Shown piece after piece: positions 5,967 through 37,716 of a stretch of DNA of 39,404 nucleotides; within the stretch, counting starts at the first letter, position 1; every line of letters starts with the position of its first letter. The stretch is taken from the sequence record DRR723986_14244. One strand, given 5' to 3'. A program made the translations under genes and the position numbers. The notes below the pieces were generated by a model. That model did no database searches, was not told the DNA's origin, and worked only from the letters and a program-made list of their open reading frames with translations.

Positions 5967-6293
5967 ATGGGTGTAACCAAATCCGAAATATTTACTGATG
6001 TTCAAAATGAGATTGCTAATCTTGCTAAGGCATTCGCCCATCCTGCAAGAGTAGCTATATTGCATCAATTATTTAAATCAGATACATGTATTTGTGGGGA
6101 TTTAGTGGATGAAATTGGCTTGGCCCAAGCCACAATTTCTCAACATTTAAAAGAACTCAAAAATCATGGGTTAATACAAGGTAATATAGAAGGAACAAGT
6201 GTTTGTTATTGTATAAATCAAGAAAAATGGTTGCAAATGAAAGAATTACTAACGGCTTTTTTTAATCAGGACATAAAAGCAAACTGTTGCTAA
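5967..6293 (+). CDS. arsR: ArsR/SmtB family arsenic-responsive repressor
   Basis: [20 protein letters not shown] and [14 protein letters not shown] wHTH, with a C-terminal CC. First gene of the ars cluster. Confidence 0.92.
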
Positions 6294-6304
6294 AAACACG
6301 AAAT

Positions 6305-6784
6305 ATGACACTATTAGAAATTAAACAAAAACTTAAAGCATTAGACACAATTGCGTTTAAGTTACCAAGTGGAGAATTAGTACCTAAACATTTTCACGTG
6401 ACCGAAGTAGGTAAAATAAATAAGCTATTTATTGATTGCGGTGGTACTATTAGAAATGAAGAAGTAGTTAACTTTCAATTATGGAATGCTAATGATTACG
6501 TTCATCGACTACATCCTGAAAAGTTAATTGACATTATTGAACTTTCAGAATCAAAACTCCATATTAATGAAAACCTTCCTATTGAAGTAGAATATCAAGG
6601 AGAAACTATTGGTAAATATAGCTTAGACTTTGATGGCAAACACTTTCTATTAAAATCAAAACAAACAGATTGTTTGGCTAAAGATAATTGCGGTATTCCG
6701 GTATCTCAATTAAAACCAAAAGCGAAACTATCAGAACTACAACAGGCATCATCTTGTTGTTCGCCAGATTCTGGTTGTTGTTAA
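6305..6784 (+). CDS. DUF6428-type protein of Bacteroidota ars operons
   Basis: HFHVTEVG, FIDCGG, TDCLAKDNCGIP and a CCSPDSGCC tail. ATG 6305 is preferred over TTG 6287. Confidence 0.78.
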   Translation: MTLLEIKQKLKALDTIAFKLPSGELVPKHFHVTEVGKINKLFIDCGGTIRNEEVVNFQLWNANDYVHRLHPEKLIDIIELSESKLHINENLPIEVEYQGETIGKYSLDFDGKHFLLKSKQTDCLAKDNCGIPVSQLKPKAKLSELQQASSCCSPDSGCC

Positions 6785-6802
6785 TTTCATCAAAACTATT
6801 TT

Positions 6803-7420
6803 ATGCTATATAAAACTATTCAAGACATTGTAAGCCATTTAGATATTAAAGAAATTTCTAAGGAGCGAAAAGAACTTTTACAATTGCTTATCGAATTCAT
6901 TCAAAATAAGATTAATAACGATGCTATTATAAATCTTAATTTTATTTGCACACACAACTCGCGCCGCAGTCATTTATCTCAAGTGTGGGCTCAAACTTTA
7001 GCACACTATTTTAATATTAAAAATGTATTTTGTTATTCTGGAGGTACTGAAGCTACAGCACTTTTTCCTTCTGCGGCAGAGGCGCTTCAATCTTCTGGCT
7101 TTAAAATTGACCGATTATCTTCTGAATCAAATCCTGTTTACGCAATTAAATTCTCCAAAGTGACTCACCCAGTAATTGGATTTTCAAAAACATTTGATGC
7201 TAACTTTAATCCTGCATCAGAATTTGCTGCGATAATGACATGCTCTAGTGCAGATAAAGGTTGCCCTTTTATTTTAGGAGCAGAAAAGCGTATTCCTTTA
7301 ACTTATGAAGATCCCAAGGCTTTTGATAATACTCCTCAACAAGCAGAAAAATATTTAGAAAGAAGCCTTCAAATTGCTACGGAATTAAAATATGTATTTT
7401 CAAACATTAAGGAAAAATGA
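6803..7420 (+). CDS. arsC: LMW-PTPase-fold arsenate reductase
   Basis: P-loop [19 protein letters not shown] and YEDPK, in ars operon context. Confidence 0.82.
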
Positions 7421-8457
7421 AAAAGAAATTAAGCTTTCTAGACAGCTATTTAACCTTATGGATTTTCATAGCAATGGCAGTGGGAGTTGCTATTGGTTAT
7501 TTTATACCTTCATTTCCAAAATACTTAAATTCGTTTAATAGTGGCACTACAAACATTCCAATAGCAATTGGACTAATCTTAATGATGTATCCACCTTTGG
7601 CCAAGGTAAATTATGCCTTGTTACCAAAAGTGTTTAAGAATGTGAAGATTCTTTCAATATCCTTAGTATTAAACTGGATTATAGGCCCTGTGCTAATGTT
7701 TATTTTAGCAATTACATTTTTACAAGATCATCCAGAGTATATGGTAGGTCTTATTCTTATTGGTCTGGCAAGATGTATTGCAATGGTTTTAGTATGGAAT
7801 GATTTAGCTGAAGGCAGCAGTGAATACGGAGCTGGCTTAGTGGCCTTGAATAGTATTTTTCAAGTTTTTGCTTATAGTTTCTACGCTTGGTTATTTATAA
7901 CAGTGCTTCCTCCTTACTTTGGTTTTAAGGGCGCCATTGTAGATATCGCAATAATCACTATTGCTGAAAGTGTAATGATATATTTGGGAATTCCTTTCTT
8001 ATTAGGTATTCTAAGCCGTGTACTTTTGGTAAAATTAAAAGGTGAAAAATGGTACACCAAAACATTTATTCCAACAATTTCACCAATAACCTTAATAGCA
8101 CTGCTTTTTACAATTATTGTAATGTTTTCATTAAAAGGTGAATTAATTGTTGAAATACCTATGGATGTTTTAATAATAGCCATACCATTACTTATCTATT
8201 TTGCATTAATGTTCTTAATCGGATTCTTTGTGTGCAAAGCTATGAATGCACCATATGATAAAAATGCAGCAATTGCCTTTACATCAGCTGGAAATAATTT
8301 TGAATTAGCTATAGCCGTTGCAATTGCTGTTTTTGGACTTAATTCTGGTCAGGCTTTTGCAGGAGTCATTGGTCCATTAGTTGAAGTTCCTGTATTAATA
8401 CTGTTAGTTAGAGTAGCTTTTTGGTTGCGAAAAAAATACTATTCGGAAAAAGTGTAA
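7417..8457 (+). CDS. acr3: ACR3 family arsenite efflux transporter
   Basis: [33 protein letters not shown] and GPLVEVP. Confidence 0.95.
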
Positions 8458-8478: not shown

Positions 8479-8536
8479 TGTTAAACTTTGTTTAACTTTT
8501 ATATTAAATAGTTAAACATTTGTATCTTTACATTGT
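8479..8536 (+). promoter_or_regulatory. Promoter/operator, copy 1 (TGTTTAAC-N14-GTTAAACA plus -7-like TATCTTTA)
   Basis: Perfect inverted repeat at 8489-8496/8511-8518. Ungapped match of 46/58 to 17973-18030. Confidence 0.8.
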
Positions 8537-8548
8537 AAATCAAATACA

Positions 8549-9205
8549 ATGCCAAAGAAAAAATCAATCACCGAAACTAACATCATCGAGTTCTACATGG
8601 ATTATATACTGACTCACAATGAACAACCGAAGTCTGTATATGCTTTTGCAAAGCTTAATAATTTTGAAGAACAAAAGTTTTATGAGTATTTCGGAACCTT
8701 TGATGCATTAGAACAGTGCATTTTTAAAATATTTTTGGATAACGCACATGCGTTATTAGAAAAAAGTGAGGACTATGTAAATTTTGACGCCAAAAATAAG
8801 CTACTGAGCTTTTATTACACATTCTTTGAAATACTTACTGCTAATAGAAGTTATGTAGTACATGTTTTAGATGGTAATAAGAACCAATTAAAATCTTTAA
8901 AAACCTTAGGTAAATTAAAACAACGTTTCATTAACTACATAGAGCATCTTAATATAAAAACCTTAGACCTAAAACAAGAACAATTACAACGATTTCAAAA
9001 TAGAAGTTTAAAGGAAACCGCATGGCTACAATTACTAGTTACTATGAAGTTTTGGTTAGATGATACTTCACCTTCATTTGAAAAAACAGACTTATTTATT
9101 GAGAAATCTGTGCGTGCAAGTTTCGATTTAATTGATACTACACCACTAAAGAGTTTAATAGATCTTGGTAAATTCTTGTATAAAGAAAAAATGCACAGTA
9201 ACTAA
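8549..9205 (+). CDS. TetR-fold protein (degenerate N-terminal HTH; C-terminus COQ9-like)
   Basis: SVYAFAK...FYEYFGTF HTH-like segment. C-terminal FWLDDTSPSFEKTDLFIEKSV. Confidence 0.75.
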   Translation: MPKKKSITETNIIEFYMDYILTHNEQPKSVYAFAKLNNFEEQKFYEYFGTFDALEQCIFKIFLDNAHALLEKSEDYVNFDAKNKLLSFYYTFFEILTANRSYVVHVLDGNKNQLKSLKTLGKLKQRFINYIEHLNIKTLDLKQEQLQRFQNRSLKETAWLQLLVTMKFWLDDTSPSFEKTDLFIEKSVRASFDLIDTTPLKSLIDLGKFLYKEKMHSN

Positions 9206-10516
9206 ATGAAGACAATCGATAGTATACCAATTACCAAGATTTCCAGAGCAAGTAAATTAGTTTCTACTGGTGCTAAGGTAGGTGTTAATTATTTAAAATA
9301 TTACGGTGATAAAATGGTGAATTCTAAAGAGGAAGCCAAGGAACGCCTTAATCAAAATAATGCGGAAGACATATATGATAGTCTTAAAAAATTAAAAGGT
9401 AGTGCTTTAAAAGTTGCACAGATGTTGAGTATGGAAAAAAGCATATTGCCCCAGGCGTATGTTGAAAAGTTTTCACTCTCTCAATTTTCTGTACCACCAT
9501 TATCACCCCCATTAGTCATAAAAACATTCAAAAAATATTTTGGTAAACATCCCGAAGAACTTTTTGATACTTTCAACGCAACTTCAGTCAATGCTGCAAG
9601 CATTGGACAAGTCCATATTGCAGAAAAGGATGGGAAAAAATTTGCTGTGAAAATCCAATATCCTGGAGTTGCAGAGAGTATCGCTTCTGATTTGGCACTG
9701 GTAAAACCAATTGCCATAAAGATGTTTAACATAAAAGGAAAAGATTCGGATAAATACTTTAAAGAAGTAGAAAACAAGCTTACGGAAGAAACCAACTACA
9801 ATTTAGAGATAGTACAAAGTAAGGCGGTTGTAGAAACGTGCAAGCACATACCGTTTTTAAAATTTCCAAATTATTACGAGGAATTTTCTTCAGAGCGTAT
9901 TATAGCCATGGATTATATGGAAGGTGAACACCTTTCTGAATTCGTGGCTCATAATACAGATCAAAATACATCTAATCGCTTAGGTCAGGCCTTATGGGAT
10001 TTTTATATGTTTCAAATTCATGTCTTAAAGAAAGTACATGCAGATCCACATCCTGGTAATTTCCTTATTTCGGATAAAGGCGAATTAATTGCTTTAGACT
10101 TTGGTTGCATGAAAGCTATTCCTGATGAATTTTATGTACCATATTTTGAATTGGCGAAAAAAGAAAGCTTAGAGAATCCTGAAATTTTCATTAAAAAAAT
10201 GTACGAACTCGAAATTCTTCGCAAAGATGATTCTGAGGAAGAAGTAGCATTTTTTAGTGACATGTTCCATGAATTGCTGAGTCTATTCACTCAACCATTT
10301 CATAACGAAGTTTTTGATTTTTCTAACCCTGAATTTTTTAATAAAGTAGCAGAAATGGGACAGAAATACTCAAAAAGTACAGAACTGCGAAATATGAATG
10401 GCAATAGAGGTTCAACGCACTTTATATATATCAATAGAACATTCTTTGGTTTATACAATTTGATGTTTGATCTTAAAGCTGAGAATATCAAAATCAACAA
10501 CTTCATAAATCTATAA
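9206..10516 (+). CDS. ABC1/UbiB (COQ8-like) atypical kinase
   Basis: LKGSALKVAQ (KxGQ variant), AASIGQVH, AVKIQYPGVAESIASDL, HADPHPGNF and LDFG. Confidence 0.92.
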   Translation: MKTIDSIPITKISRASKLVSTGAKVGVNYLKYYGDKMVNSKEEAKERLNQNNAEDIYDSLKKLKGSALKVAQMLSMEKSILPQAYVEKFSLSQFSVPPLSPPLVIKTFKKYFGKHPEELFDTFNATSVNAASIGQVHIAEKDGKKFAVKIQYPGVAESIASDLALVKPIAIKMFNIKGKDSDKYFKEVENKLTEETNYNLEIVQSKAVVETCKHIPFLKFPNYYEEFSSERIIAMDYMEGEHLSEFVAHNTDQNTSNRLGQALWDFYMFQIHVLKKVHADPHPGNFLISDKGELIALDFGCMKAIPDEFYVPYFELAKKESLENPEIFIKKMYELEILRKDDSEEEVAFFSDMFHELLSLFTQPFHNEVFDFSNPEFFNKVAEMGQKYSKSTELRNMNGNRGSTHFIYINRTFFGLYNLMFDLKAENIKINNFINL

Positions 10517-10517
10517 A

Positions 10518-11156
10518 ATGGCTGAATTTAGTTTAGATGATATTAACCAAATGCATCATTTATACAGAATCAACTTAATTAATAGTTGTTCTGGATATAA
10601 ATCTGCAAATCTTATTGGTACTAAAGACTCCATGGGCACCAGTAATGTTGCTGTATTCAGTTCCATCACGCATTTAGGCTCAAATCCTGGATTATTAGGT
10701 TTTTTTCTAAGACCTACAACAGTTATTCGTAACACATATGATAATATCAAAAACACTGGGAAATATACACTCAACCATATCCATGATGGTATATTAGAAG
10801 ACGCACATCATACTTCAGCTAAGTATGATCCTTCAATTTCAGAATTTGACGTGACAACGCTAGAGGAAGAGTATAAAGATAATTTTATAGCACCTTTTGT
10901 AAAAGGATGCCCCATTCAATTAGCCATGAGTTATGTGGAAGAATATCCTATTAAAGCAAATAACACTATCTTACTAATTGGTAAAATCGAAAAACTCTAT
11001 GTTCCAGATGATTTACTAGAAAAGGATGGGTTTATAAATCTTTCTAAAGGTAAGGTAGCGACTATAAATGGTTTGGATGGTTATGCAGTCCCAGAACTTA
11101 AAACACGATTAGAATACCAACGTCCTAAACCAGAATTTGCAATTCTAAATGACTAA
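10518..11156 (+). CDS. Flavin reductase-like (FMN-binding split barrel) protein
   Basis: GYKSANLIGT, NVAVFSSITHLGSNP, RNTYDNI and SEFD. Confidence 0.82.
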   Translation: MAEFSLDDINQMHHLYRINLINSCSGYKSANLIGTKDSMGTSNVAVFSSITHLGSNPGLLGFFLRPTTVIRNTYDNIKNTGKYTLNHIHDGILEDAHHTSAKYDPSISEFDVTTLEEEYKDNFIAPFVKGCPIQLAMSYVEEYPIKANNTILLIGKIEKLYVPDDLLEKDGFINLSKGKVATINGLDGYAVPELKTRLEYQRPKPEFAILND

Positions 11157-12577
11157 TGCGAATATTAATTACAGGCACAACAGGCTATATAGCCAAACGA
11201 CTAGCGCTTCAGCTACTAGAAGATAAGCACGAGCTTATTTGTTGTGTCCGTGATTTAAATCGCATACCTGATGAGATTGAAGAGCATCCACTTTGCTCTT
11301 TCATAAAAATGGATTTTCTCAGTCCTGAGCCTAACAAAATTCCAAAAGATATCGACGTTGCCTATTACCTAATTCATTCAATGGCAACTGATGCTGATGA
11401 TTTTGAGGATTTAGAACGTCAATGTGCACAAAATTTTAAAAATTTAGTCGAAGCCACAGATTGTGAGCAAGTCATTTATCTCAGTGGTATTGTAAATGAT
11501 GATTCACTATCCAAACATCTAAAATCAAGATTACAGGTTGAAGAAACTCTTAAATCAGAGAAATATGCATTAACAACATTTAGAGCTGGAATCATTGTTG
11601 GTAGTGGAAGTGCTTCTTTTGAAATCATAAGAGACATCGTTGAAAAACTACCGGTGATGATCACACCAAAGTGGCTAAATACCAAAACACAACCATTAGG
11701 CATTAGAGACGTACTCACCTATTTATCAGGTGCACTAGGAAAGGAAGCGCTTTACAATAGCTCTTATGATATTTTCGGACCTGAAATACTAACCTATAAG
11801 GAAATGTTATTACAGTTTGCTGAAGTACGTGGACTAAAACGATACATCTACACATTGCCAATTCTATCACCAAAACTATCATCATATTGGCTCTATTTTG
11901 TAACCTCAACATCATTTCAATTAGCACAAGCATTAGTTGATAGTATGAAGGTTGAAGTCATTGGCAAATCAAGTGATATCAATAAGCATATTAGCATCCA
12001 ACCCATGACCTATAAAAAGGCTGTAAACTTGGCGTTTCAGCGCATTCAGCAAAATTCTGTGATTTCTAGTTGGAAGGATGCCGTAAGTAGTGGCGTTTTT
12101 AAAGATCAACTATCTAAACATATAGAATTACCACAGTATGGCTGTTTTAAAGATGTTCGCTCTAAGACTCTTATAGATGAGGAATTTACACTGAATCAGA
12201 TTTGGGGAATTGGCGGACGTAATGGCTGGTATAGTTTCAATACTTTATGGAAACTCAGAGGATATGTCGATAAATTATTTGGCGGTGTAGGATTGCGACG
12301 AGGTAGAACGCATGATACCTATTTAGAAGCTGGTGATCCACTCGATTTCTGGCGTGTGCTTTTTGCTGATAAAAAAGAAAAAAGACTTCTATTATTTGCT
12401 GAAATGAAACTACCAGGCGAAGCTTGGTTAGAATTTAAAATTGTAAAAGACAAGTTATATCAGCGTGCTGTTTTTAGACCAAAAGGTGTTTGGGGAAGAT
12501 TGTATTGGTATATGGTTTTACCGTTTCACGCCTTTGTATTTAAAGGAATGATTAACGCCTTAGTTGAACCAAAATGA
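11156..12577 (+). CDS. NAD(P)-dependent atypical SDR/epimerase with C-terminal DUF2867 domain (YbjT-like)
   Basis: [35 protein letters not shown] and [13 protein letters not shown]. Confidence 0.88.
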
Positions 12578-12720
12578 GAGGTGTAAAAAAACAGCATCTA
12601 CCAGAAAAAATATGTCCAGTTTGCAAGCGACCATTTACTTGGCGTAAAAAATGGGAGAAAGACTGGGAAAACGCAAAATATTGCAGTGAAAAATGCAGAA
12701 AACAGAAAAGTATAGCTTAG
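12574..12720 (+). CDS. DUF2256 family small Cys4 protein, 48 aa; not in ORF track
   Basis: [52 protein letters not shown] overlap with the upstream stop; overlaps the DASH gene start by 28 nt. Confidence 0.9.
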
Positions 12721-13997
12721 TTTGGTTTACAAATGACCTTAGAACAATAGATAATACTGTTTTGACTGAAGCCAGTAAAAAATCAGAAAAGGTTATTGGA
12801 CTTTATTGTTTTGATCCGAGGCTATTTGAAAAGAACAGATTTGGTTTTAAAAAAACTGAAAAATACCGTGCTCAGTTTTTAATTGAAACTATTCATAATC
12901 TTAAAGCCCAGCTCGAAGCACTAAATATAGACCTGTTGGTATACCATGACTTTCCGGAAAACGCAATTCCTAAAATTTGTGAAGCACATCAAATAACTGA
13001 TATCTACATACAAAATCAATGGACTCAAGAGGAAGTTGATACAGAAAATGTGGTGAAAGCTCAAACTACAGATATCAATTGGCATCACATTTACAACCAG
13101 TTTTTATATCATCCTGAGGATATCAATTTTGATATTTCTAAAACACCTCAAGTCTTTACAGTATTTAGAAAGAAACTCGAAAAATATATCGATATACGAG
13201 ATGAATCGCAAATAACAAAACAAAGTCAGAATAACAGGATTGAAAACAATACCAGCATACCAAGTTTATCAGAATTAGGTTTTGCAGACTTTAAATCCCA
13301 TCCTAATTCTGCCTTTCCTTTTAAAGGTGGCGAAACAGAAGCTATAAATCGACTTAACGATTACTTCTTTAACACCAAGAAACTAGGATTTTATAAGAAA
13401 ACCAGAAATGGTTTAGTTGGTGTTGATTATAGCTCTAAGTTTTCACCTTGGCTGGCCAATGGTAGTATTTCTGCACGAACCATCTATTGGAAGGTTAAAC
13501 AGTTTGAGAAAGAACATTTTAAAAACCAATCGACCTACTGGCTCATTTTTGAGTTGATTTGGCGCGACTATTTTAAATATGTGTCGCTAAAACACGATAA
13601 CCAAATCTTTAAACTAGAAGGCATACTTCAAAAAGATTATGAATGGTCCACAAATCAAAACCAAATAAAAAAATGGATCAATGGCGAAACACAATCCGAC
13701 TTTGTAAATGCCAATATGATTGAGTTAAAGGAAACAGGTTGGATAAGCAACAGAGGACGGCAAAATGTTGCCTCTTATTTCGCTAAAGAACTAGAGTTAG
13801 ATTGGCGTATAGGTGCTTCTTATTTTGAGTCCTTGCTCTTAGATTATGACGTACATAGCAATTATGGTAATTGGATGTATGTCGCAGGTGTGGGTAATGA
13901 TCCTAGGGACAGAAAGTTTAATGTACAACTGCAAGCAGAGCGCTATGATGCTAACGGGAAATTTAGACGAATTTGGTTACAACCTAGTTTGTTATAA
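12693..13997 (+). CDS. DASH family cryptochrome
   Basis: [48 protein letters not shown] and [11 protein letters not shown]...[10 protein letters not shown]. Confidence 0.92.
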
Positions 13998-14057: not shown

Positions 14058-14969
14058 ATGGTCTTACTAAATAAAATATATCCAGTTTTTCTATCAGAGA
14101 ATACCAAAAAGCGAATTGAGAAAGTTATTCTATATGTAGCTTTGTTGGGCTTTTTTATCCATTTGGCTCTTATCTTTCTTTCAAAATTCAATATTGTTAA
14201 TTTACATTTAGAATCAGAACTATTTAAAAATCCTATTTCAGCCATTTACACACCATTTTCATTTATTTTAATTTATGAGGTATATCTCTTAATCTATTAT
14301 TTACCAAATTCCTTTACCACATACATCACCAAACAATATGAGATTATCACGCTAATAATCATACGAAAGTTATTTAAAGATTTATCAGGACTTCAACTGA
14401 CGTCAAATTGGTTTGAGATAAAAGATGATTTGCAGTTTACATATGATATTTTGGCGTCCATTGTTCTATTTTATTTAATATTTCAATTTCAAAAACAGGG
14501 AAAACGCAAAAACAACCAACCTAAGATTGATGTGCCAAAAATTGAAAGATTTATAAATCGAAAAAAAATATTAGCAGTTTTTTTGGTTCCAACATTTTTC
14601 ATAATGGCATTAATTACATTCTCAAGTTGGTTAGCTAGTATTTCATTTACGACAGAAGGTTTAACAAGTTTTGAAACAATTAATAATCTATTTTTTGACG
14701 AGTTCTTTACCGTTTTAATTTTAGTGGATGTTGTTTTATTACTGATCTCTTTCTTTTATACTGACAAGTTCCACAAAATAATAAGAAACTCAGGTTTTAT
14801 AGTTTCCACTATTTTAATTCGGTTATCCTTTGGAGTAAGTGGTTTGGTAAGTACGGTTTTAATAATATCTGCTGTATTGTTTGGATTGGCAATTATTCTA
14901 ATTCATAACAAGTTTGAAACCAACAATTCATCTAGCACTAAACCTACAATAAAATTCAAGAGACTATGA
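14058..14969 (+). CDS. Hypothetical polytopic membrane protein (about 8 TM)
   Basis: 303-aa hydrophobic ORF with an ATGA overlap to the next gene. Confidence 0.7.
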   Translation: MVLLNKIYPVFLSENTKKRIEKVILYVALLGFFIHLALIFLSKFNIVNLHLESELFKNPISAIYTPFSFILIYEVYLLIYYLPNSFTTYITKQYEIITLIIIRKLFKDLSGLQLTSNWFEIKDDLQFTYDILASIVLFYLIFQFQKQGKRKNNQPKIDVPKIERFINRKKILAVFLVPTFFIMALITFSSWLASISFTTEGLTSFETINNLFFDEFFTVLILVDVVLLLISFFYTDKFHKIIRNSGFIVSTILIRLSFGVSGLVSTVLIISAVLFGLAIILIHNKFETNNSSSTKPTIKFKRL

Positions 14970-16438
14970 CAGCAGATGCAGTACTCCTATTCCCACATCA
15001 GCTATTTAAGGATACACCAATTCTAAACTTAAATTGTGATGTTTATTTGGTTGAAGAGTTTTTGTTTTTTTCACATTACAAATTCCACAAGCAAAAAATT
15101 GCATTTCACAGAGCATCAATGAAAGCTTATGCAGACTTTTTAAAAGACAAGGGGCTTTCAGTAAATTATATTGAGGCTAGGTCAGAGACATCTGATGTCA
15201 GAGAATTGATTCCTGAGTTAATTCATAAAGGTCTTGAAACGCTTCATATAATTGACCCATCTGATAACTGGTTAGAGAAACATATAAAATCTGCTTCTAA
15301 ATCAATAGCTATACAATGGTATGAGAATCCGCTGTTTATAAACACCAAGGAAGAATTGAGTTCTTTCTTTAAACCTTCAAAAAAGAAATTTTTTCAAACC
15401 TCGTTTTACAAGCAACAACGTAAAGATCGAGACATACTCATGGTTAATGACCAACCAGAAGGCGGAAAACTAACCTATGACTCTGAAAACCGCAAGAAAT
15501 ATCCCAAGGATAAAACACCACCAAGTATTCAGTTTCCTGATATATCAAAATATCACAATGAAGCAATTTCTTATGTAGAGAAAAACTTTAATGACCACTA
15601 TGGTGAATTGAACGATTTTATCAATTACCCGATTGATTTTGAATCTGCCGAACGATGGCTACAACAATTTTTTGAGTATCGTTTTCACGAATTTGGAGCT
15701 TATGAAGATGCTATTGTTAAAGAGGAACATTTTTTAAATCACAGCTTGCTGTCACCATTAATTAATGTAGGTTTATTGAACCCATTGGATGTCATAGATA
15801 AAGCGATTGACTATGCCAAGTCCAATGATGTGCCTATAAATTCAACAGAAGGCTTTGTGCGCCAGATTTTAGGTTGGCGCGAATTTATTCGTGGCGTTTA
15901 CCAAGTAAAAGGTACTGAAGAACGTACTAAGAATTTTTGGAATTTCGATAGAAAAATTCCTAAGTCCTTTTATGATGGTACAACTGGCATACAACCTATT
16001 GACGATGTTATAAAGAAAGTAAATAAAACCGCTTATGCACATCACATAGAACGTCTTATGATTCTTGGCAATTTCATGGTATTATGTGAGTTTGATCCAG
16101 ATGAAGTTTATAAATGGTTCATGGAACTATTTATAGACGCTTACGATTGGGTAATGGTACCAAACGTTTACGGTATGAGCTTATATGCAGATGGTGGACT
16201 CATGTCTACAAAACCCTACATAAGCAGTAGCAACTACATTATGAAAATGAGTAACTATTCTAAAGGTGATTGGCAAGCAACTTGGGATGGGCTCTTTTGG
16301 ACTTTTATGGATAAGCATAGGGAGTTTTTCTCAGGAAACCCTAGACTCGGAATGCTTTTAGGTAATTTAGACAGAATGAATAAAGACACCTTAGAAAATC
16401 ACTTTAATAACGCAGAAAAATTCTTGGATCAACTTTAA
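14966..16438 (+). CDS. Bacterial (6-4) photolyase / CryPro (PhrB/CryB-like), variant lacking the Fe-S cysteines
   Basis: FHKQKI, EGFVRQILGWREF, YAHHIERLM, DAYDWVMVPNV and KPYISSSNYIMKMSNY. Only 2 Cys in the protein. Confidence 0.88.
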   Translation: MTADAVLLFPHQLFKDTPILNLNCDVYLVEEFLFFSHYKFHKQKIAFHRASMKAYADFLKDKGLSVNYIEARSETSDVRELIPELIHKGLETLHIIDPSDNWLEKHIKSASKSIAIQWYENPLFINTKEELSSFFKPSKKKFFQTSFYKQQRKDRDILMVNDQPEGGKLTYDSENRKKYPKDKTPPSIQFPDISKYHNEAISYVEKNFNDHYGELNDFINYPIDFESAERWLQQFFEYRFHEFGAYEDAIVKEEHFLNHSLLSPLINVGLLNPLDVIDKAIDYAKSNDVPINSTEGFVRQILGWREFIRGVYQVKGTEERTKNFWNFDRKIPKSFYDGTTGIQPIDDVIKKVNKTAYAHHIERLMILGNFMVLCEFDPDEVYKWFMELFIDAYDWVMVPNVYGMSLYADGGLMSTKPYISSSNYIMKMSNYSKGDWQATWDGLFWTFMDKHREFFSGNPRLGMLLGNLDRMNKDTLENHFNNAEKFLDQL

Positions 16439-16439
16439 T

Positions 16440-17930
16440 ATGACAGATAAGCAACATATCAATGTCGTTTGGCTTAAACGCGATTTGAGACTTCAGGATA
16501 ACGAAGCCATTGCAAATGCCCTAAAAAGTGGTAAACCTACACTTCTGCTCTATGTTTTTGAGCACATAGTATTAAATGATGGGCATTACAGCGAACGACA
16601 CTTTAATTTTATAAAGGAATCAATTAGAGATATCAATGACCAACTTAAGTCATATAACACCAAGGTTTTAGCAGTTATAAATGATATACAAAGCACCTTT
16701 AATATTATTCAAGAATTCTATAAAATTGATACTATATATTCTCATGTTGAAACCGGATTACTCTTAACTTATAATAGAGATAAAGAATTTGCGCGTTACT
16801 GCAGAAACAACCTTATAGCATGGAAAGAATCAAAAAATAATGGTGTTGAACGTGGTTTGGTAAATCGCGATAATTGGTTTGAGAACTGGGAAAGCTACAT
16901 GCATCAACCTCAAGAAGTATTTGAACCTAAGGATAGTCAGTTACTTTATATTGATAAGATTTTAGAGTTGGAGAGTGTCTTAACCGAAACTGACTTGGTC
17001 ACACCAGACGATACACCATTTCAAAAAGGTGGAAGTATAATGGCATGGAAATATGCCAATTCATTCTTTGAGAACAGGCATGAAGATTACATGTTCAATA
17101 TTTCTAAACCAGAGGCATCAAGAAGTAGTTGTAGTAGATTATCGCCATATATTTCTTGGGGAAATGTATCTATTCGTCAAATATTTCAAAAAGGTCAGGA
17201 ACTAAAAAATAAGACTTCAGATAAACGCCATATTGGTGCCTTTTTATCACGATTACGTTGGCAAGCTCATTTCATTCAGAAGTTTGAAATGGAACATACC
17301 ATGGAAAATGCCAGCGTAAACAAAGGCTATCATAAACTTAAGAAGAGCATCTCGCAAGACTACCAAAAAGCTTGGCGTGAAGGACAAACAGGATTTCCAC
17401 TGGTAGATGCAAGTATGCGCTGTCTCGTAGAAACGGGCTATGTTAATTTCAGGATGCGTGCTATGTTGGTTTCGTTCTTTTCACATATTTTATGGCAACC
17501 ATGGCAAGATGCCTCTGCCCATCTTTCACAACAATTTTTAGATTTTGAACCTGGAATCCACTTTCCGCAATTGCAAATGCAGGCAGGTGAAACTGGCATT
17601 AATAATCTTAGAATTTACAATCCTACGTTAAATGGCCTAAAACACGATCCTGATGCTGTCTTCATCAAAAAATGGTTACCAGAGCTTGCACATTTAGATA
17701 CACCCTTTGTACATGAGCCTTATCTTATGACCGAACTGGAACAAGAGCTGTACAATTTTAAACTTGGTGAAGATTATCCACATCCTATTGTCGATATAAA
17801 GGAAAACCGAAAGCGCGCCAGTGAGATTCTCTGGAATATGAAAGAAGATCCTGAAGTGGTAAAAGAAAGTTTTCGCATTTTAAAACGACATACTCTACAG
17901 GACAGAAAACGTATGCTCCGTAATGGGTAA
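16440..17930 (+). CDS. Photolyase/cryptochrome family protein, divergent clade (possibly VcCry2-like ssDNA photolyase)
   Basis: WLKRDLRLQD, SRLSPYISWG, TGFPLVDASMR, NFRMRAM and DFEPGIHFPQLQMQAG...RIYNP. Confidence 0.85.
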   Translation: MTDKQHINVVWLKRDLRLQDNEAIANALKSGKPTLLLYVFEHIVLNDGHYSERHFNFIKESIRDINDQLKSYNTKVLAVINDIQSTFNIIQEFYKIDTIYSHVETGLLLTYNRDKEFARYCRNNLIAWKESKNNGVERGLVNRDNWFENWESYMHQPQEVFEPKDSQLLYIDKILELESVLTETDLVTPDDTPFQKGGSIMAWKYANSFFENRHEDYMFNISKPEASRSSCSRLSPYISWGNVSIRQIFQKGQELKNKTSDKRHIGAFLSRLRWQAHFIQKFEMEHTMENASVNKGYHKLKKSISQDYQKAWREGQTGFPLVDASMRCLVETGYVNFRMRAMLVSFFSHILWQPWQDASAHLSQQFLDFEPGIHFPQLQMQAGETGINNLRIYNPTLNGLKHDPDAVFIKKWLPELAHLDTPFVHEPYLMTELEQELYNFKLGEDYPHPIVDIKENRKRASEILWNMKEDPEVVKESFRILKRHTLQDRKRMLRNG

Positions 17931-17972: not shown

Positions 17973-18030
17973 TGTTAATTTTTGTTTAACTATTCATTAG
18001 AAAGGTTAAACATTTGTATATTTACATAGT
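17973..18030 (+). promoter_or_regulatory. Promoter/operator, copy 2 (TGTTTAAC-N14-GTTAAACA plus -7-like TATATTTA)
   Basis: Inverted repeat at 17983-17990/18005-18012, with the same geometry as the copy at 8479-8536. Confidence 0.8.
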
Positions 18031-18031
18031 T

Positions 18032-18463
18032 ATGATACTCAATACAACACATCACAACCCTGATCACATGCAGATAATCGTCGATTTAGTCGGTGAACAA
18101 TTCAGTTTGGTACAAAAGTTGAAAATGAAGGGTGTAGGGTCTAAACGCATGATAATTGATGAGGTTAGCCCAAATATGCAAACTATTATGAATACGGTGT
18201 CTGACATAAATTATGGTAGTATAGAATTACGGCCAAATGGAATTTTAGTTAGAATTACTAAAGGGCTTAAAAATTTCACATGGATTATTCCATATTACCA
18301 ACTAGTAATTTATAAAATAAATGGTTCGAGCCTACACGCTCAAGGCCGTTATGTTCATTTTAAAAATAGTAAAACATTTAAAGAGAATAAAAAATTCTTT
18401 GATAAGCTATTAGATGAAAAAGTAAAGTACGACATGCAATTTGCAATGCCATCTGAAGTATGA
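18032..18463 (+). CDS. Hypothetical protein
   Basis: Clean ORF coupled by ATGA to the next gene. ATG 18032 is preferred because TTG 18014 lies inside the promoter motif. Confidence 0.7.
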   Translation: MILNTTHHNPDHMQIIVDLVGEQFSLVQKLKMKGVGSKRMIIDEVSPNMQTIMNTVSDINYGSIELRPNGILVRITKGLKNFTWIIPYYQLVIYKINGSSLHAQGRYVHFKNSKTFKENKKFFDKLLDEKVKYDMQFAMPSEV

Positions 18464-18732
18464 AATTAAATGAGAGAGATATAGATCGGATTATTGAAAT
18501 GGCCTGGGAAGACAGGACGCCTTTTGAGGCGATTACCTTTCAATTTGGTATTAAAGAACAAGAAGTGATCGAACTCATGCGAAGAGAAATGAAGCCAAGT
18601 AGCTTTAGAATGTGGAGAGAACGAGTACAAGGCAGAGCAACTAAACATGGTAAAAAAAGAACGTTTGACAAAGGCAGATTTAAATGTTCGCGTCAAAGAA
18701 CAATAACAAATAACTCTATTTCAAAACGATAA
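18460..18732 (+). CDS. TIGR03643 / DUF2805 family protein
   Basis: RIIEMAWEDRTPFEAI...SFRMWRERVQGRATKH signature. Confidence 0.88.
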   Translation: MKLNERDIDRIIEMAWEDRTPFEAITFQFGIKEQEVIELMRREMKPSSFRMWRERVQGRATKHGKKRTFDKGRFKCSRQRTITNNSISKR

Positions 18733-18787
18733 CACGTGCTTTGATTTAAGCTTGGAGTACTTAAAAACAGCACATTAAAAAGATTCT

Positions 18788-19480
18788 ATGAAAACAGAAA
18801 CAATTTCCCAAAAAAACGGTCATCAATTAAACGGATTTAGTATTGAAGATATAGGTGATGATCATTTATTTACAAGTTTAGACACACCAATGAAGCCAAA
18901 TGCTTTTGATATGTCTAATGAAGAAAAGAAAAAACGCATTTCCATTTTATTTTCAGAAATAATGGATGTTTTAGGTTTAGATTTAACGGACGATTCATTA
19001 AGAGGTACACCAGACCGTGTAGCAAAAATGTATGTTGATGAAATATTTTCAGGATTAGATCCCGAGAATAAACCGAAGATAGCCTTGTTTGATAACAAGT
19101 ACCAGTACAACCAAATGCTAGTTGAGAAGAATATTACATTCTACTCTAATTGCGAACACCATTTTGTACCAATTATTGGTAAGGCGCACATTGCTTATAA
19201 GTCGTCTGGAAAAGTCATTGGGTTATCAAAACTCAACCGTATTGTGCAGTATTATGCGAAACGTCCACAAGTACAAGAGCGATTAACTAATCAAATTGCA
19301 AATGAACTAAAGACGGTTTTAGAAACAGAAGATGTGGCCGTTATTATAGACGCCAAACATTTATGTGTTTCCTCTAGAGGTGTAAAAGACGATACCTCAG
19401 CTACAGTAACGACCTATTATGGCGGCATATTTAACACGCCAGAAAAAATTGCAGAATTACAAAACTATTTAAATAATTAA
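18788..19480 (+). CDS. folE: GTP cyclohydrolase I
   Basis: TPDRVAKMY, CEHHFVP, GLSKLNR, RPQVQERLT and HLCVSSRGV. Confidence 0.96.
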   Translation: MKTETISQKNGHQLNGFSIEDIGDDHLFTSLDTPMKPNAFDMSNEEKKKRISILFSEIMDVLGLDLTDDSLRGTPDRVAKMYVDEIFSGLDPENKPKIALFDNKYQYNQMLVEKNITFYSNCEHHFVPIIGKAHIAYKSSGKVIGLSKLNRIVQYYAKRPQVQERLTNQIANELKTVLETEDVAVIIDAKHLCVSSRGVKDDTSATVTTYYGGIFNTPEKIAELQNYLNN

Positions 19481-21125: not shown

Positions 21126-21599
21126 TTGAATAAGATTTACTTATTGTTACTGTTTTTAGCTGTCAACTTTGGTGGTTTAGCATTAGGTAATATGTTTATG
21201 GGAGATGCCGTTAATGGAAAATGGTATATCAATTTAAACAAAGCGCCATGGACGCCTCCAGGTTGGGTATTTGGAGTTGCATGGACCACTATAATGATAT
21301 GCTTTTCAATTTACCTATCCTATTTATTTTCCTTACGTAGTTCAAGATACGTTCTTGCAATTTATTGTCTGGCTTTAGTCTTAAATGTAAGTTGGAATTA
21401 CTTTTTCTTCAATCAAAACTTAACAAGTGTAGCCTTATTCGTTCTAATATTTCTGCTATTAGTAATCATTTATTTCTTTATCAGTTTTGGTGATGAAGAA
21501 TTGAGTAAAATGAAATATTTATTACTTCCTTACATAATTTGGCTTTGTATTGCCATATCTTTAAATGGATATGTGGTACTAAAAAATTGGTTCAAATAA
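21126..21599 (+). CDS. tspO: TspO/MBR family tryptophan-rich sensory protein
   Basis: WYINLNKAPWTPPGWVFGVAW, LNVSWNYFFF and LLPYIIW. Confidence 0.9.
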   Translation: MNKIYLLLLFLAVNFGGLALGNMFMGDAVNGKWYINLNKAPWTPPGWVFGVAWTTIMICFSIYLSYLFSLRSSRYVLAIYCLALVLNVSWNYFFFNQNLTSVALFVLIFLLLVIIYFFISFGDEELSKMKYLLLPYIIWLCIAISLNGYVVLKNWFK

Positions 21600-22060
21600 T
21601 GAAGATATATACTTTACATCAAAAACAAAGGCTGCCTATTAGCCTAGATGATGCGTGGGAATTTTTATGTAACCCTGCCAATTTATCTAAATTAACACCT
21701 ACAGAAATGAAAATGAAAATTATTTCTGGTCCTGATAGACCAATGTATGCTGGGCAAGTATTACAATACTCTGTAACTCCATTACCAGGATTTAAAACAA
21801 AATGGGTGAGTGAAATCACTCATTATGAAGATAAAAAATACTTCGTTGATCTTCAACTATATGGTCCTTATGCCTTTTGGCATCATAAGCATTTCGTTCA
21901 TGAAATTGAAGGCGGTGTAGAAATGGAAGACATAATAGATTATAAAGTACCTTTTGGTATGTTAGGTCAATTGTTTCATCCTATTTTAGTTAAACCAAAA
22001 CTAAACTCTATTTTTAATTACAGAAAAGAGAAAATGGAATCAATTTTCGGTAAGTATTAG
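21599..22060 (+). CDS. SRPBCC/START-fold ligand-binding protein
   Basis: AWEFLCNPANLSKLTP, FVDLQLYGPYAFWHHKH and IFNYR. TAATG overlap with tspO. Confidence 0.85.
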   Translation: MKIYTLHQKQRLPISLDDAWEFLCNPANLSKLTPTEMKMKIISGPDRPMYAGQVLQYSVTPLPGFKTKWVSEITHYEDKKYFVDLQLYGPYAFWHHKHFVHEIEGGVEMEDIIDYKVPFGMLGQLFHPILVKPKLNSIFNYRKEKMESIFGKY

Positions 22061-33972: not shown

Positions 33973-34019
33973 CAATCAGTAAATAAGTGATGTTTAACTA
34001 ACATTACAAAGAACTAAAA

Positions 34020-36284: not shown

Positions 36285-37716
36285 ATGAAAAATTACATTT
36301 ACCTAAGTTTAGCCCTCCTTCTATCTTTAATCTTATTTCAGTAAATGCTCAAGAGTCAGAGCAAGAGAAATATTCAACAAAAACTGAAAAGGAAAAAAAG
36401 AAAGAATCACCAAGTTTTAAGGCCGATGAATATAAAGTTAAAGTTAATTTTAAGAGAGCTATTCCTTATGGTAAAACACTTCTTAAAGAAGGTCGAATAA
36501 TCACCATGAATGGTAAAGAAGTAATTGAAAATGGCGATGTTTTAATAGAGAACAATAGAATTAAAAATATTGGTGTTTTTGGTAGCTTTCCAATACCCGA
36601 CGATGTAAAATTTATTGATATATCTGGTAAAACTATAACACCAGGTTTTGTTGATACACATGCCCATATGTGGCCAAATTGGGGAATTCACAAAAATCAG
36701 GTTTGGATTTACTCAGCTAATTTAGCATATGAAGTTACAACCATAAGAGATCCACAAACTGCTACAACAGACATTCTTACGTACTCTGACATGGTTGAAG
36801 CTCGTATGATTCATGGTCCAAGAGTTTACAGCACAGGACCTGGTGTTGGCTTTTGGGCATACAATAAAAAAAAAGCTTAAAACACGCTAAAGAAATACTT
36901 AAGCAATACAGTGAATATTATAATACAAAGAGTATTAAAAGTTATTTAGTTGGGAATCGTCAACAGCGACAGTGGGTAATAATGGCAGCTAAAGAGCTTA
37001 AATTAATGCCAACAACAGAAGGTGGCCTAGACTTTAAGCAAAATATGGTTAATATGATTGATGGATATCCTGGTCATGAGCACTCTTTTCCTTTATATCC
37101 TATCTACTATGATGTTATAACTACAGCAGCACAATCTCAAATGGCCATAACACCTACTCTTTTAGTTAGTTATGGTGGACCGTGGGCAGAAAATTATTTT
37201 TATTCCATAGAGAATACATATAATGATAAAAAACTTCAATACTTCACACCATATTAAGAGCTAGCTCAATAGTCTAGACGCAGACCAGGATGGTTTAAGG
37301 ATGAAGAACATGTTTTTCAAAAACATGCGGAATTTATGAAAGACCTTATTGAAGCAGATGGTATTGGAGGAATAGGAAGTCATGGGCAGCTTCAAGGTTT
37401 AGGGTTCCATTGGGAATTATGGGCAACGGCTAGTGGTGGTATGACAAATTATGATGCTTTAAGACTAGCAACAATTAAAGGATGTGAAGCATTAGGCCTT
37501 GACGAGGATTTAGGAACTCTAGAAATTGGTAAAATTGCAGACATATTAATTTTGGATGAAAATCCCCTAGAAAATTTACGCAATACAAATACATTAACTC
37601 ATGTAATTAAAAATGGTGTAGTATATGACGTAAATACCCTTGATGAAGTAGTGCCTGCAGAAAAGAAAGTAGAAACATTTCACTGGCAAACTATTAGACC
37701 AACTGGTCTACCATGA
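36285..37716 (+). pseudogene. Disrupted secreted amidohydrolase-family gene
   Basis: Fragments join into one amidohydrolase (PGFVDTHAH, TTEGG, GHEH, TPTL, GSHGQLQG, GKIADILILDENPL). Frameshifts lie near 36326 and in the A9 run at 36866-74. In-frame stops are TAA 37255-57 and TAG 37270-72. Confidence 0.9.

Follow-up and report, generated by a model that had tools for sequence, protein, structure and literature searches.

Among the closest described systems to the one analysed here are those of COQ8 and COQ9. COQ8 is presented as an ATP-driven extractor of coenzyme Q (CoQ) intermediates (10.64898/2026.02.03.703536) and COQ9 as a TetR-fold binder of isoprenoid lipids for which DNA binding is not predicted (PMC9774615; 10.1101/2021.11.15.468694). 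Two further families are relevant: the acyl-CoA-responsive TetR repressors of the FadR/YsiA type, of which FadR binds long-chain lipid ligands, and the mycobacterial protein MABP-1 (Rv3197), which according to PMC8696161 has ATPase activity and confers macrolide resistance. Here we describe a pair of adjoining plus-strand genes, at 8549..9205 and 9206..10516 of a 39,404-nucleotide stretch of DNA (sequence record DRR723986_14244; hereafter the window), which encode a 218-residue TetR-fold protein and a 436-residue UbiB/ABC1-family atypical kinase-like ATPase of the short, soluble form. The window derives from a Winogradskyella-like flavobacterium, Winogradskyella being the name borne by the closest homologues, and Bacteroidota are a menaquinone-using phylum. 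An initial reading of the sequence (the original prediction) had suggested that the pair may be an isoprenoid-lipid handling module, rather than a repressor plus a kinase, at the head of a light-stress operon. We find the pair to be a conserved unit, and tentatively favour the reading that it is a light-induced module handling a membrane isoprenoid lipid.

The TetR-fold gene ends with TAA at 9203-9205 and the ABC1 gene begins with ATG at 9206, leaving a gap of 0 nt, as first noted. An ABC1 gene lies directly 3' in 80 of the 80 closest loci, which come from species-representative genomes, all Flavobacteriaceae by their titles; four of these loci are partial or truncated at the edge of a contig. 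Over 70 loci, the median distance from stop to start is 5.5 nt; it is ≤15 nt in 60 of them, 0 nt in 14 and an overlap in 5, with four rows of doubtful kinase start and ten non-Flavobacteriaceae rows set aside. Beyond these close relatives, TetR_C_23 (PF17931), the Pfam family of the TetR-fold protein, was present in 89 of 301 evenly drawn Bacteroidota genomes (90 matches), and a same-strand ABC1 domain lay 3' of 88 of the 90 matches, in 86 of them within ~420 nt domain to domain; this census drew on every one of the 90 PF17931 places listed and on the 127 places where ABC1 scored at least 150 bits, excluding weaker kinase-like rows and 284 unlisted matches. The two exceptions are a real split in one genome (G169) and a sub-threshold match. 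Paired ABC1 frames span 434-525 residues (one has 685), and 34 of 39 unpaired strong ABC1 frames span 548-657. PF17931 itself divides into two subfamilies, scoring at least 73 bits and 26-58 bits, and both are paired with ABC1. The co-occurrence that remained to be checked across Bacteroidota is thus borne out: the pair is a conserved functional unit, often translationally coupled, and no chance neighbourhood.

Metatranscriptome contigs comprise short pieces of both genes, among them a 360-nt contig from a 96%-identical relative that spans the junction (8965-9324); such pieces show occurrence in RNA libraries, and cannot give a single transcript or an expression level. Prediction of a complex between the two proteins scored 0.20 against a mark of 0.34, without controls, and speaks neither for nor against binding. 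In G169 (L098), the next gene after a full-length TetR_C_23 gene (107 bits) is metK, and a short ABC1 frame (438 residues) lies elsewhere on the same chromosome.

The ATPase (9206..10516) matches Pfam ABC1 (PF03109) with E 2.7e-51 and 174.5 bits against a cut-off of 22.9. It shares with COQ8, UbiB and the plant ABC1K proteins the ABC1 domain, an Ala-rich AAS loop, the catalytic VKIQ lysine, HxDxHPGN and DFG, and its nucleotide-site motifs are intact (AAS loop, VKIQYPG, HADPHPGN, DFG). Like COQ8 and UbiB, it also has an N-terminal extension of the KxGQ type. The NAASIGQVH motif (residues 129-137) and FAVKIQYPGVAESIASDL (residues 146-163) are present as originally described, and KxGQ is indeed altered to KVAQ, within LKVAQML at residues 68-74; K69-V70-A71-Q72 is invariant in 43 of 43 aligned ABC1 sequences, the pair alignments (A4, A5) covering 42 of the 84 loci having both genes complete. 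The further suggestion that the kinase is specifically COQ8-like did not hold. In matches to the PDB, the mycobacterial homologues MABP-1 (5yjz, E 4.7e-34) and MSMEG_1954 (7cy2, 4e-32) outscore COQ8B (6.4e-30) and COQ8A (3.3e-22), and neither NCBIfam equivalog model is satisfied, MABP-1 (NF050082) giving 137.8 bits against a cut-off of 800 and UbiB (TIGR01982) 134.5 against 487.55. MABP-1 and MSMEG_1954, the best solved homologues, are similar in length and likewise soluble; unlike MABP-1, the ATPase sits in a probable light regulon and falls far under the MABP-1 cut-off. Unlike COQ8 and UbiB, it is short and soluble with an invariant KVAQ, and no ubiquinone enzymes over cut-off were found in five relatives carrying it. 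Mycobacteria, the hosts of MABP-1, use menaquinone rather than ubiquinone, and we know of no TetR_C_23 partner for MABP-1 or MSMEG_1954. On sequence grounds, the ATPase represents a distinct short ABC1 subfamily.

The TetR-fold protein (8549..9205) matches TetR_C_23 over residues 84-210 (E 5e-46; 156.4 bits, cut-off 29.1) and combines an acidic, non-canonical helix-turn-helix (HTH) domain with an all-helical, COQ9-like ligand-binding domain. The family hallmark, FWxxDxSxxFEKTDxxIEKS, occupies residues 168-187 within FWLDDTSPSFEKTDLFIEKSV (residues 168-188), and DxGKF lies at 205-209. Of the 150 representatives listed, 127 are in the family alignment (A1), which omits 23 rows that are short, fragmentary or N-extended. 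It is around the hallmark that the likeness to COQ9 resides, window residues 165-189 aligning with positions 42-66 of the COQ9 model. A weak match to the Pfam COQ9 model (E ≤1; best E 0.0011) occurs in 36 of 128 diverse family members, making COQ9 the second commonest family among them after TetR_C_23 (TetR_C_24 occurs in 13 and TetR_N in 5). In six-frame scans of the genomes of five relatives, the COQ9 model's sole match at E ≤1 in G001 and in G002 falls inside the paired gene, and the other three genomes gave no match at E ≤1. Because the weak match recurs in this way across the family and is the only one genome-wide in G001 and G002, the likeness is above chance. With PF17931 excluded, 18 of 30 ESM Atlas matches belong to sets in whose clusters 14-27% of members carry COQ9; the nearest named clusters (score 0.94) are bacterial, with COQ9 on 14-27% and TetR_N on 27-39% of members. 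The likeness of the protein to COQ9 is real but weak.

The HTH of this protein comprises helices at residues 9-23, 30-36 and 41-47. Pfam TetR_N (PF00440) gave no match to the window protein at E ≤10, and the five family members that match do so at E ≤1. Across the family, the net charge of residues 9-60 averages -3.1 (-5 in the window protein), and only 7% of members have a positive charge there. The recognition helix begins E-x-[DE]-F-Y, with E41 in 120 of 128 members and D or E at position 43 in 89 of 128, and its exposed positions 42 and 46 vary across the family.

Some members dispense with the HTH altogether. In G285 and G081 (L107, L108) the protein begins at a point corresponding to window residue ~51, in helix 4, and helices 1-3 are absent; its length is 171 residues by the open reading frame (ORF) table, or 160 from the ATG in G081. 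In G153 (L109) the N-terminus is shortened. The HTH-less form aligns with the window's family at an hhalign E of 7.9e-40, keeps the hallmark as FWxNDKSxxKENTDVMVEK, and is represented by 71 clusters, mostly of ~165 residues and 48-100% identity, with Chitinophagales or Sphingobacteriales names; comparison of these sequences identifies it as a clade and no artefact. HTH-less members adjoin ABC1 in 3 of the 3 genomes examined (G285, G081, G153), each of which also has a polyprenyl synthetase gene (PF00348, E ~1e-73) lying divergently beside the locus. Because HTH-less members stay paired with ABC1, beside a polyprenyl synthetase, the family would have a function that does not need DNA binding, and the annotation "TetR family transcriptional regulator" for TetR_C_23 proteins may be wrong as to function.

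In order to compare the fold with COQ9 and with DNA-binding TetR proteins, structural models were searched against solved structures. The AlphaFold2 (AF2) model of the full-length protein (predicted local distance difference test, pLDDT, 95.2) has its best fold matches in 3c07 (Z 17.0) and 3ni7 (Z 16.4), uncharacterised TetR proteins from S. coelicolor and N. europaea that align through the C-terminal domain in the profile search; Foldseek with this model placed COQ9 at rank 4. The model of an HTH-less relative (pLDDT 84.6) was aligned to 48,161 PDB representatives, and here human COQ9 ties for the top: 6awl_A at Z 12.7 (root-mean-square deviation 3.6, 142 aligned), 3c07 at 12.7, COQ9 4rhp_A at 12.6 and 3ni7 at 12.5. 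Thus, the full-length fold does not separate COQ9 from classical TetR proteins, and it is the domain without its HTH that puts COQ9 in the top tier. In our reading, there is a COQ9-like subgroup among TetR C-domains, and the ligand-binding domain of the present protein is one of its members.

Further parallels with COQ9 are the TetR fold with an HTH-like N-terminal domain, the tie to a UbiB-family ATPase, encoded beside the protein here and working with COQ9 there, and an extra C-terminal helix (residues 198-216) where COQ9 has its membrane-binding helix 10 (PMC9774615). The differences are that the shared motif, judging from alignment ranges, falls after the COQ7-binding patch of human COQ9 (D225-L247) and outside it, and that the hosts of the present family make menaquinone, lipid binding in this family being a prediction. 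Genes for quinone synthesis were checked in five relatives carrying the pair, rather than in the window's own genome: MenA was over cut-off in 4 of 5, and UbiG, the Ubi hydroxylases and COQ7 (PF03232) were each over cut-off in 0 of 5. In these relatives, the menaquinone-only background supposed at the outset is supported.

The link to light comes from the region upstream of the pair. An operator region at 8480..8518 (no strand) contains a 30-bp palindrome, TGTTTAAC-N14-GTTAAACA, at 8489-8518, whose 3' end lies 30 nt 5' of the start codon at 8549, and a third half-site, GTTAAAC, at 8480-8486, which together with the next half-site makes a 17-bp palindrome at a spacing of one helical turn. The consensus of the 30-bp palindrome is TGTTTAAY-N14-RTTAAACA, and an exact second copy at 17983..18012 (no strand) heads the next transcription unit (18014-19480). 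Directly 3' of the operator, TATCTTTA (8523..8530, +) is a candidate Bacteroidetes -7 box, the consensus of which we take to be TAnnTTTG. Among the 80 related loci, the exact palindrome lies ≤250 nt upstream of the TetR_C_23 gene in 57 and a relaxed pattern in 72, and a block, TTTTGTATCTTTAC, upstream of the gene is conserved in most. Of 151 Flavobacteriaceae genomes, 107 have the palindrome, in 1-8 copies each, and control matches are nearly absent (G001 has four sites and G002 three, with 0 control matches). It is present in 79 and absent from 13 genomes with PF17931, and present in 28 and absent from 31 without (odds ratio 6.7, uncorrected for relatedness).

We considered the palindrome as an operator of the TetR-like protein itself and rejected this, since it also occurs in 28 of the 59 Flavobacteriaceae genomes that lack PF17931, and 13 of the 28 carry 2-5 perfect copies. 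In five such genomes a short ABC1 was likewise not found, and MerR+B12-binding genes lie at palindrome sites there. Testing the TetR-like protein for binding to this operator, as initially proposed, would consequently be the wrong test, because the operator occurs in genomes that lack the protein and lies beside CarH/LitR-type genes. In these five genomes the sites fall between a MerR+B12-binding gene and a crtI-like gene (four loci) or upstream of photolyase, SDR-DUF2867 (SDR, short-chain dehydrogenase/reductase) and peroxiredoxin genes; in G001 a site falls between the proteorhodopsin and blh genes. A B12-binding_2 open frame of roughly 300 residues (301-376) was present in 5 of 5 relatives tested; among those of the window's ORFs that were scanned with Pfam, none is a MerR+B12-binding gene.

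Like CarH/LitR operators, the palindrome is large, overlaps the promoter and lies beside light-response genes, and both its halves fit the CarH repeat consensus nAnnTnnACAn given in PMC8156234. Unlike the tandem 11-bp direct repeats of CarH, the halves are inverted and 21-22 bp apart, and binding is predicted. Because the palindrome is also present in genomes without the pair, it is most likely the operator of a MerR+B12-binding (CarH/LitR-type) photoreceptor repressor; the pair would therefore belong to a light regulon. The light-stress operon first proposed is in this sense light-linked, by palindrome sites at rhodopsin, photolyase and crtI-like genes. In 9 of 10 loci of non-Flavobacteriaceae type, no palindrome of the flavobacterial type stood 5' of the pair. 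Inspection by eye of the sequence ahead of sister-clade pairs showed a GAAC-rich block but nothing that was clearly an operator.

The palindrome-regulon loci are L083, L127, L129-L133, L135 and L136. Octamers TGTTTAAC at 9723, 13494, 19658 and 28705 of the window lie inside coding sequence and were treated as chance, as was the octamer at 33991, where the full palindrome would need 3 mismatches.

Together, these features are the basis of the reading we favour, a light-induced module for a membrane isoprenoid lipid, which we hold to be plausible though still short of probable. In such a module, a CarH/LitR-type B12 photoreceptor would bind the palindrome in the dark, and light would switch the genes on. 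By analogy with COQ8, the ABC1 ATPase would spend ATP to loosen a membrane isoprenoid lipid, most likely menaquinone, its precursor or a light-damaged form, or alternatively a carotenoid, and the TetR-fold protein, by analogy with COQ9, would hold this lipid or pass it on. The HTH would be vestigial or secondary in the TetR_C_23 subfamily to which the window protein belongs. Whatever goes further than gene association, fold and regulon membership is drawn by analogy with COQ8 and COQ9. Of the original prediction of an isoprenoid-lipid module, the unit, its COQ9-like half and the link to light are retained, and membership of the COQ9 family and a COQ8-specific kinase are given up. A bolder version, which we regard as unlikely but worth stating, is that the two proteins form a physical ATP-driven machine that extracts menaquinone, its precursors or light-damaged forms from the membrane, a ubiquinone-independent counterpart of COQ8 plus COQ9 derived from a lipid-sensing TetR repressor, in which HTH-bearing members may still report lipid status to the promoter.

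Several observations weigh against the lipid-handling module. The likeness to the COQ9 C-terminal motif proposed at the outset was correctly placed, within residues 164-195, but both curated cut-offs are missed: Pfam COQ9 (PF08511) gives E 0.042 and 13.9 bits against 20.5 over residues 165-189, and NCBIfam TIGR02396 ("COQ9 family protein") E 0.0052 and 16.7 bits against 74.55 over residues 164-195. The protein is thus no member of the curated COQ9 family. When the 128-member profile was run against PDB sequences, DNA-binding TetR proteins of the FadR type came first (B. subtilis FadR, E 7.1e-8, residues 1-146, HTH included), and COQ9 was not among the 60 sequences matched at E ≤10. In the structure comparison, COQ9 reaches Z 13.6 with the full-length model, tied with KstR, FadR and others and below 3c07 and 3ni7; with the HTH-less model, the lead of the top rows is only 1.0 Z (next row, Z 11.7), and Foldseek returned no row at E ≤0.001. 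The three-helix HTH is complete and well folded in the AF2 model, with pLDDT above 95, and the recognition helix of the sister, low-scoring subfamily looks more canonical. FadR, a real DNA binder, is likewise acidic at the position of E41, so that the acidic HTH only leans against DNA binding. The ATPase is as near to macrolide-binding MABP-1 as to COQ8, and the genome counts are uncorrected for relatedness.

One alternative is a conventional, FadR-like TetR repressor that senses a long-chain lipid and autoregulates the operon besides CarH/LitR, with the ABC1 gene as its main target. TetR regulators are often encoded beside their targets; the family profile aligns through the HTH to FadR-type repressors, the HTH is complete, the 17-bp palindrome with its third half-site at 8480-8486 has a size typical of TetR operators, and the presence of the 30-bp palindrome correlates with PF17931. 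FadR-type proteins are, however, proven DNA binders with a recognisable TetR_N, unlike the present family with its acidic HTH, its HTH-less members and its tie to an ABC1 gene. The HTH-less clade keeps the remaining domain under selection beside ABC1 in the three genomes examined, the N-terminal domain and recognition helix are acidic with TetR_N undetected in the window protein and rare in the family, and the recognition positions 42 and 46 differ from member to member, in contrast to the invariant pairing. Relatedly, genomes without PF17931 carry several perfect palindromes, five of them without a short ABC1 found, and the sister-clade pairs have no clear palindrome upstream. We therefore consider a conventional repressor a serious alternative, but a doubtful one.

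A dual role would reconcile the intact HTH, the obligate pairing and the HTH-less clade: the TetR-fold protein would take lipid from the ABC1 ATPase and also bind DNA, so that lipid status (e.g., photodamaged menaquinone) feeds back on transcription, and the Chitinophagales clade would have kept the lipid half only. The more canonical recognition helix of the sister subfamily and the third half-site upstream of the window pair are in keeping with this, but the HTH is acidic and the conserved operator is explained without the TetR-fold protein, which makes a dual role improbable. Least likely by far is a response to drugs or xenobiotics, with the ABC1 protein a MABP-1-like small-molecule-binding ATPase acting against a macrolide-like or hydrophobic compound and the TetR-like protein its sensor, since, although MABP-1 provides both the best solved homologue and the top NCBIfam match and is itself credited with ATPase activity and macrolide resistance, the score lies far under the MABP-1 cut-off and equals that for UbiB, the pair shares its operon, which lies behind a light operator, with photolyase and oxidoreductase genes and not with genes for efflux or ribosome protection, and the neighbour of the HTH-less clade is a polyprenyl synthetase.

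The genes 3' of the pair lie on the same strand and are packed tightly, with start and stop codons overlapping or almost abutting. A flavin-reductase-like gene (10518..11156, +) and an SDR/NmrA-like gene with DUF2867 (11156..12577, +), both assigned with Pfam, are followed by a 48-residue zinc-ribbon ORF (12574..12720, +; pattern CPVC...CSEKC) that overlaps the preceding gene by 4 nt (12574/12577) and the following one at 12693/12720, and that resembles a small zinc-ribbon protein common in photolyase clusters, presumably the family DUF2256. The rest of the first operon comprises a photolyase/cryptochrome-family gene (12693..13997, +), a 303-residue membrane ORF (14058..14969, +), a photolyase-family gene of the DPRP type (14966..16438, +) and another photolyase/cryptochrome-family gene (16440..17930, +). 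Behind the second palindrome come an ORF without Pfam match, DUF2805 and GTP cyclohydrolase I (FolE), and farther 3' in the window are an SDR, a glutathione peroxidase, TspO and a fourth photolyase. The genes after the ABC1 gene vary among the 80 related loci; by tblastn, 57 of them have a flavin-reductase-like match behind the pair and 56 an SDR-DUF2867 match. In the high-scoring TetR_C_23 subfamily, photolyase or DPRP genes adjoin the pair in 4 of 7 sampled loci outside Winogradskyella.

The ORF that opens the unit behind the second palindrome (in the region 18014-18732, +) probably has its true start 3' of the TTG at 18014, and the DUF2805 gene (E 2.1e-37) overlaps it by 4 nt; DUF2805 also follows photolyase genes in L114. 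An SRPBCC protein at 21599-22060 (+) had been proposed as a possible partner of the pair, but this assignment depends entirely on matches of E 0.12-0.18 (Polyketide_cyc2, E 0.12). The ORF precedes the last photolyase, and a similarly placed ORF in G413 (L127:1558-2022), directly behind a palindrome, matches Polyketide_cyc at E 1.5e-4. Directly 5' of the pair, the window carries an arsenic-type resistance operon (5967-8457, +) with an ArsR-type HTH_5 gene, DUF6428, a weak LMWPc-like gene and an SBF/ACR3-type transporter, the last of which also precedes the pair in L007, L010, L013, L015 and L020. Elsewhere, three successive short ORFs at 36506-37716 (+; 124, 91 and 126 residues) resemble, by translation, pieces of one amidohydrolase-type gene and are possibly a broken gene.

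The low-scoring TetR_C_23 subfamily (L117-L126) has surroundings of its own. A Vut_1 gene (PF02592, a putative vitamin or queuosine-precursor transporter) divergently adjoins the pair in 10 of 10 loci, PqiA-like genes lie 3' in 4 of 10, and Band_7 and GtrA-like genes recur nearby. Several of these pairs lie ~1.3 kb from a contig start, which suggests an adjoining repeat, e.g., an rRNA operon.

Literature searches for PF17931 or TetR_C_23 returned no mention in the library searched, and, judged by titles and abstracts, publications on UbiB with menaquinone in Bacteroidetes and on the flavobacterial light response do not describe the pair. A search on CarH/LitR in flavobacteria found no paper giving a flavobacterial operator or the 30-bp palindrome. 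What would be new here, if the analogy with COQ8 and COQ9 holds, is a partnership of the COQ8/COQ9 type outside ubiquinone metabolism.

For decades it has been an open question what UbiB/ABC1/COQ8 proteins do at the molecular level, and nearly all work on them concerns settings in which ubiquinone or plastoquinone is produced. The strict, phylum-wide pairing of a short ABC1 ATPase with a COQ9-like TetR-fold protein could help to show the family's role without ubiquinone, in Bacteroidota hosts that are genetically tractable. It offers a two-gene system in which to ask which lipid the ATPase acts on and whether a lipid-holding partner is needed, and it bears on whether menaquinone or carotenoid turnover belongs to the bacterial light response. 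The clade without an HTH shows a route from a TetR repressor to a COQ9-like protein that does not bind DNA. Should the pair prove to be an ATP-driven machine, a UbiB-family protein would for the first time have a defined partner and class of substrate beyond the metabolism of ubiquinone and plastoquinone.

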